A stretch of DNA of 7,315 nt. It comes from a virus. Taxonomy: Duplodnaviria > Heunggongvirae > Uroviricota > Caudoviricetes. Position 1 is the first letter of the stretch, and every line of letters starts with the position of its first letter. Under the pieces are notes generated by a model. The model was given only the letters and a program-made list of their open reading frames with translations, ran no database searches and was not told where the DNA came from. Both the position numbers and the translations under genes were made by a program. This document shows, piece after piece, positions 270 through 4,606 of this stretch. The stretch spans positions 1-7,315 of the IMG/VR virus record IMGVR_UViG_2778261512_000020; one strand, 5' to 3'.

Positions 270-424
270 GTTTTACAGATAACTGGTCAGACGAAGAATT
301 CATTCGTCAGATGAAAGAATTAATCGGTAACGAAGGAGATATTCATGTCACTTGCAACCACAGTGAAGGAGAGCAAGTTACAGAGACGCATGTACACGCA
401 GAAAGCTCTCTGGTATCGCCATAA
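266..424 (+). CDS. Hypothetical small protein, 52 aa, at the position where lambda has gam and P22 has arf
   Basis: ATG 266-268 overlaps the kil stop (ATGA, TGA 267-269), with AGGA at 261-264. Translation is MSFTDNWSDEEFIRQMKELIGNEGDIHVTCNHSEGEQVTETHVHAESSLVSP, stop TAA 422-424. It is the only open frame in this interval. Confidence 0.4.
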   Translation: MSFTDNWSDEEFIRQMKELIGNEGDIHVTCNHSEGEQVTETHVHAESSLVSP

Positions 425-525
425 TGGCGACCGCGAAGGAATGCGGGTATGCCTTAATTTGTCCCGAGTCGAAGTATTAAATCAGCGTTATTTCCTTGGG
501 CCGTGTCCATTCTGAGATCAAACAT

Positions 526-1131
526 ATGAGCAAAGAATTTTATGCAAGGCTGGCAGCCATTCAGGAGAATCTGAACGCGCCAAAGAATCAGTACAACTCA
601 TTCGGTAAATATAAATACAGAAGCTGCGAAGACATTCTTGAAGGCGTTAAGCCGTTACTGAATGGTCTGTTTTTATCAATCAGCGATGAAGTTGTGTTGA
701 TTGGTGATCGGTATTACGTGAAAGCCACGGCAACTATTACCGATGGCGAAAACAGTCATACGGCAACCGCTCTTGCACGAGAGGAAGAAAGCAAGAAAGG
801 AATGGATTCTGCACAAGTTACGGGAGCTACAAGCTCTTATGCACGCAAGTATTGCCTCAATGGTTTGTTCGGCATTGATGATGCGAAAGATGCAGATACC
901 GACGAGCATAAACATCAGCAGAACGCAGCAGCAAAGCAATCAAAACCATCACCTACACCTGAACAGGTTCTAAAAGCATTCACTGACGCAGCATTGCAGA
1001 AAAACACCGTGGAAGAGCTTAAACAGGCGTTCGCCAAAGCGTGGAAGATGCTCGAAGGCACACCGGAGCAGCACAAAGCGCAGGACGTTTACAACATCAG
1101 ACGAGACGAATTAGAAGGAGCAGCTGCTTAA
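526..1131 (+). CDS. erf: Erf-family single-strand annealing protein (essential recombination function, P22 Erf-like)
   Basis: 201-aa translation begins MSKEFYARLAAIQENLNAPKNQYNSFGKYKYRSCEDILEGVKPLL, which I recognise as the Erf N-terminal annealing domain, followed by a low-complexity linker and C-terminal domain. The ORF track starts at TTG 496, but the ATG at 526 matches the family N-terminus. Stop TAA 1129-1131. Confidence 0.85.
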   Translation: MSKEFYARLAAIQENLNAPKNQYNSFGKYKYRSCEDILEGVKPLLNGLFLSISDEVVLIGDRYYVKATATITDGENSHTATALAREEESKKGMDSAQVTGATSSYARKYCLNGLFGIDDAKDADTDEHKHQQNAAAKQSKPSPTPEQVLKAFTDAALQKNTVEELKQAFAKAWKMLEGTPEQHKAQDVYNIRRDELEGAAA

Positions 1132-1514
1132 TGGCACATTCGATTACTGTAAGACTAAACAAGCCCGCAAGAGAGTTTCAGGCCGGGGAAAATATCGGAT
1201 TCAACATCCGTGCTGGCGTTCAGTATTACGATCGCCAGACAAAAAAGAAAGAATGGACAAACTACAGCGCCGTTGTATTTGCCAAGCCGGGAGCGCAAGC
1301 GGATTACTACCGTAGTGTTCTTGTTGAAGGTGGCATTGTGGAAATTACCGGAGAAAACATCAGGGTTGATGTTTATCAGGGGCAAAATGGTCAATCAATC
1401 ACTCTTGAATTACTGAATGCAAAGATTGGATTTGCAGCTTCAGGAAATGGCCCGCAGCAGCAAAGTAGTAACCAGCAGAACACTCCTGTATACGACGATT
1501 CCATCCCATTCTGA
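1131..1514 (+). CDS. Phage SSB-like single-stranded DNA-binding protein, 127 aa, with canonical acidic C-terminal tip
   Basis: ATG 1131-1133 overlaps the erf stop (TAATG), with GGAG at 1116-1119. Translation is MAHSITVRLNKPAREF...NAKIGFAASGNGPQQQSSNQQNTPVYDDSIPF. The DDSIPF ending matches the bacterial SSB tail (DDDIPF), the preceding Gln/Gly-rich linker and the N-terminal 100 aa are consistent with an OB fold. The track ORF from 1041 is an in-frame upstream extension inside erf. Confidence 0.7.
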   Translation: MAHSITVRLNKPAREFQAGENIGFNIRAGVQYYDRQTKKKEWTNYSAVVFAKPGAQADYYRSVLVEGGIVEITGENIRVDVYQGQNGQSITLELLNAKIGFAASGNGPQQQSSNQQNTPVYDDSIPF

Positions 1515-1537
1515 TTTAGAACAATAAGGATTTAATT

Positions 1538-1834
1538 ATGCCAGCGCCTCTGTATGGTGCGGATGACGCGCGCCGCTGTTCCGGCAATTCCGTATCGGAG
1601 GTGCTGGATAAATTCAGGAAAAACTACGACCTGATAATGTCGCTACCTCAGGAAACGAAAGAGGAAAAGGAATTTCGCCATTGTATATGGCTTGCAGAGA
1701 AAGAAGAACGAGAGCGAATTTACCAGACATCAATCCGACCATTCCGCAAAGCCACATATACCCACTTCCCTGAATATATCGACCCGCGCCTGCGTAATTA
1801 CCGCTCACGCTATGGCGCTATCAGTAATGACTGA
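1538..1834 (+). CDS. Hypothetical protein, 98 aa, basic/charged
   Basis: ATG 1538 is preceded by AAGGA (1526-1530) with a 7-nt spacer; stop TGA 1832-1834. Translation [63 protein letters not shown]... has no family I can recognise. Confidence 0.55.
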
Positions 1835-1844
1835 GGAATTTACA

Positions 1845-2009
1845 ATGAGAGGACTTGCATACAATCCCGGCATTCTTCCGGCAGAAATGATTATTCGCCA
1901 ACGCGTAAAGCCAATGCCATCGAGAGAGGAATTGCTTAAGAGAAATTCTTTTCCATCAGTGAATCAAAACAAATATCTGAATGCGATGTGGCGGAGTGGG
2001 AAGAAATGA
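1845..2009 (+). CDS. Hypothetical small protein, 54 aa
   Basis: ATG 1845 is preceded by GAGG (1833-1836) with an 8-nt spacer. Translation is [54 protein letters not shown]. Its stop TGA 2007-2009 overlaps the next start (ATGA). The track ORF 1692-2009 is an upstream extension overlapping the previous gene. Confidence 0.45.
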
Positions 2010-2572
2010 AACAAATGTCACTAATTGAGATGGATGGTTTTCTGAAAGGTAAATGCATCCCAAGTGATTTAAAGGTTAACGAAACAAACGCTGAATATCT
2101 GGTGCGTAAATTTGCTGAAGCGGAGGCCAAGATTTCCGCGCTGTCAGAAGACCAGCAGAGAGCGATTGAGTCAATTAAGCAGGCTGATGCGGCTGTTAAG
2201 TTGGCACACGAGAAGTTTTCAGCGCTGGCTGCGGAGAATGCGGTGATGAAAGCGTTTGGCGACAAGCTATACAGCATGTATAAAGGCCTTGAGGCCTCTG
2301 GTGGTGGATTCCATGACGAACAGTCAATTCCCTATCAGCAAGCGGCTCTCGATGCGGCAATATCGGAGTTCGAGAAAATCAAAACCCCGGCGACCGATGC
2401 GTTCCTGGCTGAATTGCTGGCGCATGGTGTGGAGTTGTTTGCTGAAAGCCAGAATGAATACGTCAGAAAAAACCGCAACGAATTGGATTCCATGACTCGC
2501 GCCGCCTATTGCGGAAGCGCTGTTGATGCTGAGAGATTCGCCGCCCAGCTTCGCAAAGGAGTGCAGTCATGA
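2006..2572 (+). CDS. Hypothetical protein, 188 aa, Ala/Glu-rich and probably helical or coiled-coil
   Basis: ATG 2006 has GGAAG 5 nt upstream and an ATGA overlap with the preceding ORF; the track start GTG 1988 is also possible. Translation [71 protein letters not shown]... Stop TGA 2570-2572. Confidence 0.6.
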
Positions 2573-2802
2573 GCAACCTACTACCATGTCCATTCTGTGG
2601 CGGCGCAGCGCACGTTGCCAGTGAAGCAGATCACCCTGAATATGGCTCTGGAGGTAGATTCTATTTCGTTCGATGCGGTACGTGTCGCGCTCAATCTGGT
2701 AGCAAATATGCAGCGCCTGGAAATGACTGCGCGATTTTTTATTCAGAGGTTAGAGCTGAGTGGAATCAGCGAGCAAAGGAGGCAACCAGTGAGCGAAATT
2801 AA
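2569..2802 (+). CDS. lar: Lar-family restriction-alleviation protein (zinc-ribbon, Rac prophage Lar/RalR-like), 77 aa
   Basis: ATG 2569 overlaps the preceding stop (ATGA), with AAGGAG at 2556-2561. Translation [44 protein letters not shown]...AEWNQRAKE has the CPFCGG ... CGTC zinc-ribbon arrangement I associate with Lar-family proteins. Stop TAA 2800-2802. Confidence 0.65.
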   Translation: MSNLLPCPFCGGAAHVASEADHPEYGSGGRFYFVRCGTCRAQSGSKYAAPGNDCAIFYSEVRAEWNQRAKEATSERN

Positions 2803-3241
2803 TTACCAGGCACTGCGTGCTAAGGCAGAAAAAGCAACGTGTGGCGAGTGGTCGCTCGAATATGGAGATGGCCGATTTGATGGTGATGATGCGCTAATTC
2901 ATCGCGAGGCTGCTGGATATATTCCCATTTGCAGAATTGAAGGCGCGCATCCAGAAAGCGGTTTCGATGAAGATTTCCAAATGGAACAGCAGGCCAATGC
3001 TGAATTCATCGCCGCAGCCAATCCAGCTACCGTGCTGGCGCTGCTGGATGAGCTGGAAGCCAAAGACAAGCGGATTGCTGACATGGAGGCGCGGGAGGTT
3101 GTACTGCCGCGTGCGCACGATGTTCACCCATTAGGGCCGCAGTCGGCGAAAATTTTTTGTGAGTTTCACCGGAGTATCGTGAACAGATGCGCCGATGAGA
3201 TTCGCAAGGTTGGCGTCAAAGTCAGCATCAAGGGGAATTAG
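2789..3241 (+). CDS. Ead/Ea22-like family protein, 150 aa
   Basis: GTG 2789 is preceded by a strong AAGGAGG (2776-2782) with a 6-nt spacer. Translation VSEINYQALRAKAEKATCGEWSLEYGDGRFDGDD...ANAEFIAAANPATVLALLDELEAKDKRIADMEAR carries the GEW and FIAAA...LLDELEAKDKRIA motifs I recognise from Ead/Ea22-like prophage proteins. The track ORF from 2597 is an extension running through the lar gene in another frame. Confidence 0.55.
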   Translation: MSEINYQALRAKAEKATCGEWSLEYGDGRFDGDDALIHREAAGYIPICRIEGAHPESGFDEDFQMEQQANAEFIAAANPATVLALLDELEAKDKRIADMEAREVVLPRAHDVHPLGPQSAKIFCEFHRSIVNRCADEIRKVGVKVSIKGN

Positions 3242-3245
3242 GGAT

Positions 3246-3647
3246 ATGGCTGAACTAACCAAAGAATGGCTGAAGCAAACTATCGCTGAATACGAAGCCA
3301 ATCGTGATGAATTACCGTTTGGACTGGATACCAACAGTGCCATTGAGCTTCAGGCGTTCAAGTTGGCGCTGGCATCGCTGGAAGCAGATCCAGTTGCTTA
3401 TATTTTCAAACATCCGGCCGGGAAATTATTCTTGGCTTTAACGGATGAAAGCAATAAAGATCAATCGGACGTTATTCCTGTTTATGCCGCCCCTCCAGTA
3501 CCAGTAGTACCTGCTGCATTACCTGAGAACGACGATGAGGACTGGCATGACATTGATTATCTTGAGCCATCTGAAGTTTACTCGCTTGGGCGAACAGCTG
3601 GCTGGAACGCCTGCCGTGCTGCCATGCTTAAGGGAGATAAATCATGA
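3246..3647 (+). CDS. Hypothetical prophage protein, 133 aa
   Basis: ATG 3246 follows the previous stop TAG 3239-3241, with AGGGG at 3231-3235. Translation MAELTKEWLKQTIAEYEANRDELPFGL...VAYIFKHPAGKLF...PVYAAPP...GWNACRAAMLKGDKS has typical coding codon usage. The track start at 3195 would overlap the previous gene. Confidence 0.6.
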   Translation: MAELTKEWLKQTIAEYEANRDELPFGLDTNSAIELQAFKLALASLEADPVAYIFKHPAGKLFLALTDESNKDQSDVIPVYAAPPVPVVPAALPENDDEDWHDIDYLEPSEVYSLGRTAGWNACRAAMLKGDKS

Positions 3648-4060
3648 TTAATCGCACCAAGCTGGAGCACATCCTCGAATATGCCAGACAGCAGAGGCGC
3701 TTTGGTCAGCATTGCAAAATTCCGCCAGGAGATATGGTTGAAATCGTGGAGATTGCCATGCGCAAGGCTGGCAACTCTCCGGTAACTCCGGATGGTTGGA
3801 TAAGCTGTAGTGATCGAATGCCTGTAATTGGTGAGCTAAATTGGAGAACTAGTTTTCCTTTGCTGATTACGTGTGAGATTGGCGTTATACCAGCTTATTA
3901 CGGCTTTGTGAGCATTAATGGGGATAGGCATTATGGCTTTATGGAGAGTCTTAAATACGGAGACGATAGCGGCGGCCATCCTCAAACTAATGAATATGAT
4001 CTGATTAGCAATGTAACCCACTGGATGCCGCTACCAGAACCGCCTCAGGAGGCAAAATGA
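3644..4060 (+). CDS. DUF551-like prophage protein, 138 aa
   Basis: ATG 3644 overlaps the preceding stop (ATGA), with AGGGAG at 3632-3637. The C-terminus ...NVTHWMPLPEPPQEAK and the internal W-x-S-x-DR-x-P segment match my recollection of DUF551 proteins found near xis/int in enterobacterial prophages. Confidence 0.55.
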   Translation: MINRTKLEHILEYARQQRRFGQHCKIPPGDMVEIVEIAMRKAGNSPVTPDGWISCSDRMPVIGELNWRTSFPLLITCEIGVIPAYYGFVSINGDRHYGFMESLKYGDDSGGHPQTNEYDLISNVTHWMPLPEPPQEAK

Positions 4061-4316
4061 TGGATGTAAAAGAGAAGGTTTTGCAGGTGATGCGTTCCCG
4101 GGCGCCCTGCAAGATAAAGCTCTCGGCGGGGAATATCCATTCAGGATGGCAACCTGGAATCTGCGGTTGGCAATGGAGAAGGAATTTCCTGATGAAGAAT
4201 GGCGTTCGGCAGATTTGCGCAAAATTCTTATGGAGCTGGCTAAAGACGGAGCAGTATCCAAAGATACCTATGCCAGCCGGATTGGTCAGACGGTATGGAG
4301 ACTGGAGGTGAGGTAA
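4057..4316 (+). CDS. Hypothetical small protein with ambiguous reading frame (possible frameshifted gene)
   Basis: A strong AGGAGG (4046-4051) and ATG 4057/4060 with an ATGA overlap indicate initiation in the track frame (4057-4311). Downstream, that frame is rich in Trp and rare Arg/Ile codons (AGG, AGA, ATA, CGG), whereas the -1 frame reads protein-like (MATWNLRLAMEKEFPDEEWRSADLRKILMELAKDGAVSKDTYASRIGQTVWRLEVR, ATG 4146 to TAA 4314-4316). Confidence 0.3.
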
Positions 4317-4423
4317 TGGCTAACCTGCAACTTGCCGTCAAATGTGAATAACAATCCTCGCATTCGCGGGGATTTCTTTTATCTGAACTCGCTACGGCGA
4401 GTTTTGTTTTATGGAGATGATAA

Positions 4424-4591
4424 ATGCACTTCCGAGTCACAGGTGAATGGAATGGAGAACCATTCAACAGAGTTATCGAAGCAGAGAACATCAATGACTG
4501 CTATGACCACTGGATGATATGGGCGCAGATAGCACATGCAGACATAACCAATATTCGAATTGAAGAACTGAAAGAACACCAAGCCGCCTGA
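4424..4591 (+). CDS. Hypothetical protein, 55 aa, directly upstream of xis (same size and spacing as the small ORF upstream of xis in lambda)
   Basis: ATG 4424 is preceded by GGAG (4413-4416) with a 7-nt spacer. Translation is MHFRVTGEWNGEPFNRVIEAENINDCYDHWMIWAQIAHADITNIRIEELKEHQAA, stop TGA 4589-4591. It is 168 nt long and 39 nt from the xis start, which is what I recall for lambda. The track missed it (under 60 aa). Confidence 0.55.
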   Translation: MHFRVTGEWNGEPFNRVIEAENINDCYDHWMIWAQIAHADITNIRIEELKEHQAA

Positions 4592-4606
4592 TGGCGGCTT
4601 TTTCTT
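4581..4606 (+). terminator. Rho-independent terminator-like hairpin
   Basis: Perfect 8-bp stem AAGCCGCC (4581-4588) / GGCGGCTT (4593-4600) with loop TGAT, followed by a T-run (4599-4603, TTTTTCTT). The stop codon of the 55-aa ORF lies in the loop. Confidence 0.6.

Follow-up and report, generated by a model that had tools for sequence, protein, structure and literature searches.

A Lar-family gene overlapping an Ead/Ea22-like gene in the early-left arm of a lambdoid prophage

The 77-aa ORF that overlaps the start of an Ead/Ea22-like gene in a lambdoid prophage is a genuine gene, and its product very probably belongs to the broad Pfam Lar family. The gene lies in a stretch of 7,315 nucleotides, all of which was analysed and which is called the window below. 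It is an ordinary gene that has already been catalogued, and an identical protein is found in public databases under the Lar family name. The function is less settled than the name. The "anti-restriction" label is carried over from a single distant founder, whose own role is disputed. Counts of "anti-restriction genes" in prophages that are taken from such annotations are counts of an inference.

Gene model and reading frame

As shown in Table 1, the Lar-like gene is framed by two overlapping junctions, and it shares 14 nt with the Ead/Ea22-like gene. A separate Lar ORF followed by a GTG-start Ea22-like gene had already been proposed in the sequence-only reading. The coordinates given there for the ORF, the knuckles, the ATGA overlap, and the overlap of 2776-2802 with the ribosome-binding site and start of the Ea22-like gene were all correct. 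This gene model agrees with PGAP, and it is to be preferred over four GenBank phage annotations. The PGAP geometry at the Lar/Ea22 junction of a close relative is the same as that in the window. By RNA folding, the initiation region at 2530-2600 has less structure than shuffled controls (z = +2.34).

Table 1. Features of the Lar-like gene and its junctions. Coordinates are window positions, except for the last row, where they refer to the listed loci.
Feature	Coordinates	Strand	Evidence or remark
Lar-family zinc-ribbon protein gene (predicted), 77 aa	2569-2802	+	ATG 2569-2571, TAA 2800-2802; ORF list
Shine-Dalgarno AAGGAG of the Lar-like gene	2556-2561	+	7 nt before ATG; within the 3' end of the upstream gene
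ATGA start/stop overlap with the upstream gene	2569-2572	+	upstream TGA at 2570-2572
Upstream gene, phrog_614, function unknown	2006/1988-2572	+	PHROG match
First zinc knuckle (predicted), C7-P-F-C10	2587-2598	+	invariant in alignments A1, A2, A3
Second zinc knuckle (predicted), C36-G-T-C39	2674-2685	+	invariant in A1, A2, A3
Fifth cysteine, C54	2728-2730	+	invariant in the Lar-like subfamily (A1, A2, A3)
C-terminal helix, residues 55-76, motif EVRxEW65N66xR68	2731-2796	+	AlphaFold model, alignment A3
Shine-Dalgarno AAGGAGG of the Ead/Ea22-like gene	2776-2782	+	inside the last codons of the Lar-like gene
Ead/Ea22-like gene, GTG start 2789-2791	2789-3241	+	GTG 6 nt past AAGGAGG
CDS starting inside the Lar-like ORF	L001 4029-5039; L002 3029-3841; L141 974-1765; L142 974-1855		GenBank records

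A different gene model has been used for this segment, in which the 77-aa ORF is no gene and 2597-2788 is instead coding in the +1 frame, where it lengthens the Ead/Ea22-like protein at its N-terminus. No stop interrupts the +1 frame between GTG 2597 and the Ea22-like gene, either in the window or in its near-identical copies, and the GenBank records of phages HK106, HF4s, ST104, and UAB_Phi20 annotate such a long Ea22. However, diverged homologues keep the Lar frame together with its substitution pattern, which identifies the 77-aa ORF as the gene. In three homologues (L005 from Kluyvera, L070, and L071), whose proteins are 89-93% identical, nothing interrupts the Lar frame, whereas the +1 frame contains 2-3 stop codons there. 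Counted as synonymous/non-synonymous, the codon changes in these three were 28/6, 22/5, and 19/6 when read in the Lar frame; the +1 frame gave 2/31, 3/22, and 4/21. Among eight sequences, the variable columns were distributed as 7/4/40 over codon positions 1/2/3 of the Lar frame. The Lar frame also carries significant profile matches (Pfam E-value 1.4e-9, above chance), the protein that starts at GTG 2789 matches Pfam Ead_Ea22 from its residue 2 onwards, and PGAP annotates two genes. The long Ea22 model was rejected on the stop codons and the mostly non-synonymous changes in the diverged homologues; that it should be correct after all is hardly credible.

The long Ea22 CDS in the four phage records is thus an annotation error. 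In these records of cultured phages, the 77-aa ORF is left without annotation, and the Ead/Ea22-like CDS begins inside it in another frame (Table 1, last row). Over-extended Ead/Ea22-like CDSs in reference phage records let the error spread through similarity-based annotation.

Near-identical junction sequences flank the Lar-like gene, gcaaaggagTGCAGTCatgagc at 2553-2574 and gcaaaggagGCAACCAgtgagc at 2773-2794. Each of them consists of a ribosome-binding site, a spacer of 6-7 nt, and a start codon, which is then followed by AGC. The shared sequence could be a module boundary that aids cassette exchange in the accessory regions of lambdoid phages.

Family membership and sequence features

The window protein matched the Pfam family PF14354 (Lar_restr_allev) with 38.5 bits against a gathering score of 28.6, and residues 3-69 covered profile positions 2-58 of 58. 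Rac Lar scored 53.5 bits on the same profile. A match to phrog_599, "Lar-like restriction alleviation protein", was also found (E = 1.4e-12). The narrower NCBIfam profile TIGR03655 (anti_R_Lar) gave 29.4 bits, which is below its cut-off of 39.6, with 55.3 bits for Rac Lar. Two relatives of the same subfamily pass this profile (P0033, 44.0 bits; P0128, 40.3 bits), while P0010, P0014, and P0067 fail it. Since two of its members pass, the subfamily is continuous with Lar and lies at its edge. The RalR equivalog NF007260 (cut-off 113 bits) did not match the window protein at E <= 0.1; RalR itself scored 166 bits. The Lar/RalR assignment of the sequence-only reading was borne out by PF14354 and phrog_599, but not by TIGR03655 or NF007260.

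The protein of 77 aa has a mass of 8.4 kDa and is near-neutral, with a pI of 6.7. Two CxxC knuckles and a helix with a conserved Trp were found. The four cysteines of the zinc-ribbon layout CPFCGG ... CGTC, which had been noticed from the sequence, are present as C7, C10, C36, and C39, where CPFCGG corresponds to residues 7-12. These four cysteines and W65 are invariant in alignments A1, A2, and A3. The subfamily also has a conserved insert, SGSKYAxxGNDCxxFY (also written RAQSGSKYA...CPxFY), which contains a fifth invariant Cys. A Cys between the second CxxC and the Trp was found in 126 of 158 relatives.

An exhaustive profile search retrieved 1,470 representative clusters at E <= 1e-3; of these, 185 reached E <= 1e-10. 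The homologues come from many bacterial phyla and from viral contigs, and the Lar-like domain in these clusters is often N-terminal in longer proteins. All of the 57 longer relatives that were scanned match PF14354. Almost no known domains were detected in their C-terminal extensions, with DUF551 in two of them. Relatives of 150-357 aa (among P0017-P0161) have an N-terminal Lar-like domain followed by an extension with no Pfam match. The DUF551 domain that is fused to the Lar-like domain in two relatives also occurs as a separate gene in the window (3644-4060).

Predicted structure

The AlphaFold model of the window protein (mean pLDDT 82.7) contains three strands and a helix (residues 55-76). 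The four cysteines of the two knuckles would hold a three-stranded β-ribbon around a predicted zinc site, and we infer zinc binding from this arrangement. A search of BFVD, which contains predicted structures of viral proteins, gave best matches that nearly all carry a Lar annotation (top TMq 0.82, E = 4.9e-6). For the Lar family, no solved structure or complex was found, and no nuclease fold was detected in the fold comparisons of the window protein.

Operon context

In the window, which covers the early-left (pL) arm of a lambdoid prophage, every phage gene is on the + strand. The 77-aa ORF is preceded by a kil-like ORF, erf (PF04404), an ssb-like gene, abc2 (PF11043), a short DUF2737-type ORF, and the phrog_614 gene. 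It is followed by the Ead/Ea22-like gene (PF13935), a gene of unknown function, the DUF551 gene, xis, a lambda-type int, and the chromosomal gene ybhC. This layout is that of the HK106 pL arm. From about 300 to 4350, a consensus scan detected neither promoter-like nor terminator-like sites. As no such site lies between the Lar-like and Ea22-like genes, the two are co-transcribed, and the segment fits one long early transcript. Three terminator-like hairpins are located upstream of xis, at 4353-4374, 4385-4404, and 4581-4600.

The overlap at the 3' end of the Lar-like gene had been taken to imply obligatory co-expression with the Ea22-like gene. Co-transcription of the two is supported, but an obligatory coupling is not, as the Ea22-like start has its own strong and unsequestered ribosome-binding site. 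No significant signal of a structure that hides this site was obtained by RNA folding at the junction (z = -0.2 and -0.4). Overlapping junctions are the norm, both in this segment and across the family. Within 1845-4311, ATGA start/stop overlaps occur at 2006, 2569, 3644, and 4057, and the 14-nt overlap at 2789. When 99 neighbours on the same strand as a family member were compared, the 4-nt ATGA overlap was the commonest upstream junction.

The genes next to family members, on both sides, were scanned at about 125-129 loci, with crude ORF calling (the longest ORF nearest the family gene was taken), by which rare associations may be missed. No recurrent partner of the methyltransferase, nuclease, or antitoxin type was found at these loci. 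Nor was there any enrichment of methyltransferase or restriction genes, with one Dam in 129 upstream neighbours. Recurrence was confined to a second Lar paralogue, at 10 loci, and to Ea22, at 3 loci that are all close relatives. A functional pairing of Lar with Ea22 is not supported, as the arrangement is conserved neither in other E. coli prophages, where a different gene lies between Lar and Ea22, nor across the family. Tandem duplication is the sole recurrent neighbourhood feature of the Lar family. The adjoining paralogue is present in about 10 of about 130 loci, upstream in 7 and downstream in 3 (e.g. L009, L011, L014; L005-L138).

Two further observations concern the neighbouring genes. 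The profile PHROG 368 (239 positions) aligns twice in this segment: positions 1-88 with the first 100 residues of the Ea22-like protein, and positions 86-238 with residues 44-193 of the gene upstream of Lar (1988-2572). From this split match, the two genes that flank Lar correspond to the halves of a protein that is single in other phages, which points to domain shuffling here. The next ORF downstream of the Ea22-like gene (to 3647) could start at ATG 3195, with a 47-nt overlap with Ea22, or at ATG 3246, past the Ea22 stop and after aaggggaa. PHROG profiles align only from residue 16-18 of the long form onwards, which favours the start at 3246.

Comparison with Rac Lar and lambda Ral

Rac Lar/RalR (b1348 of the E. 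coli K-12 Rac prophage, 64 aa) is the founder of both PF14354 and TIGR03655. The sequence-only reading had called the window protein "Lar/RalR-type", which names one protein twice rather than two relatives. Rac Lar and the window protein both pass PF14354, and they share the (K/L)PCPFCG knuckle in the N-terminal part, the second CxxC, and W-N-x-R at the end of the C-terminal helix; the EVRxEWNxR motif of the window protein corresponds to ALERWNKR in Rac Lar. Like the window gene, Rac Lar lies in an early-left operon, downstream of recombination genes (recE-recT in Rac) and upstream of xis-int. However, the two proteins share 26% identity over 42 residues (E = 8e-5 in a single comparison), mostly at the Cys knuckles. 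The loop that separates the knuckles is longer in the window protein. In Rac Lar, the position of C54 is not a Cys and the SKYAxxGNDCxxFY insert is missing, and RalR is basic (pI 9.1 versus 6.7).

Lambda Ral, a small protein of the early pL operon, is a functional analogue of Lar, and its likeness to the window protein is one of role and location only. It comes from a different family and is no Cys-rich zinc ribbon. Ral alleviates type IA restriction by enhancing modification (PMC12707154; 10.1101/2023.04.06.535777). [quoted passage not shown]

Possible functions of the window protein

Two accounts of the Rac protein have been published. According to King & Murray (1995), as cited in PMC10286901 and PMC11482910, Rac Lar alleviates EcoKI restriction and enhances modification. 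However, Guo et al. (2014) described the same protein as a non-specific DNase toxin, and stated that restriction-modification is not inhibited by it (PMC4041452). In phage Bas63, the importance of a Lar homologue varied with the host strain; the homologue mattered in strains without intact type I systems, and a type IV restriction target was suggested by the authors (PMC11482910). Since the authors could not ascribe this host-dependence to type I systems, the target may differ between the branches of Lar. Beyond Rac Lar/RalR, the literature on PF14354 members gave only annotation-level mentions and this note of conditional essentiality.

The gene is one cassette in the mosaic "ea" accessory segment, between erf/ssb-like/abc2 and xis-int, of an HK106/HK97-like lambdoid prophage that is integrated next to ybhC. 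It would be transcribed early from pL in one long anti-terminated message, and translated from its own Shine-Dalgarno sequence. As the likeliest mechanism, the product would be a host-takeover factor that binds a host protein and has no catalytic role. If Rac Lar and the functionally similar lambda Ral are a guide, it would act on the type IA restriction-modification complex (HsdM/HsdS). Once bound, the complex would methylate unmodified phage DNA faster, and restriction would thereby be alleviated. Homology and operon position make restriction alleviation a plausible function. The family membership, the Lar-like fold matches, the early-operon accessory context, the alleviation reported for Rac Lar, and the host-dependent importance of the Bas63 homologue argue for it, and the breadth of the family, with its 1,470 clusters across phyla, fits a target as common as restriction-modification systems. 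On the other side are the 26% identity to Rac Lar, the TIGR03655 score below the cut-off, the longer loop, and the five-Cys insert. The role of the founder has also been contradicted (PMC4041452), and the neighbourhoods show no enrichment of methyltransferase or restriction genes. Alleviation through binding of the type IA complex, with both target and effect taken from the analogy, is thus possible, at somewhat less than an even chance.

The window protein may instead be a Lar-fold zinc ribbon with a different job. It might act on another host defence, such as type IV restriction or another immune system, or on another process; it could also be a small regulator that binds DNA or RNA polymerase, and "restriction alleviation" would then be a name only. 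The subfamily is distinct from Rac Lar in its fifth invariant Cys, its insert, its pI, and the TIGR03655 score, and the Bas63 homologue mattered in the absence of intact type I systems (PMC11482910). The frequent fusion of the domain to varied, unannotated C-terminal extensions suggests an adaptor module. Weak similarities to the zinc ribbons of Ogr/Delta, TFIIS-like proteins, the NrdR N-terminus, and Elf1 were also seen, although all of them are generic and below curated thresholds. However, there is no positive evidence for any specific alternative target, and type I restriction alleviation is the sole experimentally supported phenotype of the family besides the RalR report. A different job is accordingly a real prospect, one that falls a little short of even. 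The five-Cys, insert-bearing clade comprises hundreds of clusters across many bacterial phyla, in which the domain is often fused to unannotated C-terminal modules. We suggest, tentatively and with rather more doubt than belief, that this clade might be a functionally separate branch of the Lar fold with a target other than type IA restriction-modification, and that the label would then be a systematic mislabel. The function of the five-Cys subfamily would validate or correct the label on well over a thousand protein clusters.

The DNase activity reported for RalR raises the question of whether the window protein is a DNase type I toxin that damages DNA on expression. Rac RalR belongs to the same Pfam family. 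[quoted passage not shown] Changes at positions 14, 37, 39, 49, 51, and 52 reduce the toxicity of RalR, and K52Q abolishes the DNase activity (PMC4041452). Only N51 is kept among these six positions in the window protein. K52 aligns with Q67, and K is found there in only 6 of 158 relatives. NF007260 did not match at E <= 0.1, no nuclease fold was detected, and the protein is near-neutral rather than basic. In contrast to RalR/RalA, an Rfam scan of the window detected neither a RalA-like antisense RNA nor any other RNA, although a lineage-specific uncatalogued RNA is possible. Antisense ORFs and an antitoxin arrangement are also absent, and overlaps on both sides fix the gene within a phage operon that runs in one direction. 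These differences make a RalR-like toxin very unlikely.

Near-identical copies

Phage HK106 encodes an identical protein (100%), and other near-identical copies have 96% amino acid identity. Identical or near-identical ORFs are found in the P22-like Salmonella phages ST104, UAB_Phi20, and HF4s, and copies in E. coli prophages include WP_071532516.1 and WP_072019243.1. In total, 47 of 5,426 complete E. coli genomes carry copies that are 95-99% identical at the DNA level (96-98% is also given), and PGAP names the copies of all 47 genomes "Lar family restriction alleviation protein". In HK106-type copies, as in the window, a phrog_614-type gene precedes the Lar-like gene and an Ead/Ea22-like gene follows, again overlapping it by 14 nt. 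Other near-identical copies differ from the window in their surroundings: RecT/Gp157 replaces Erf/Abc2, a hypothetical or DUF7739 gene is inserted before Ea22, and a YfdS-family gene lies upstream.
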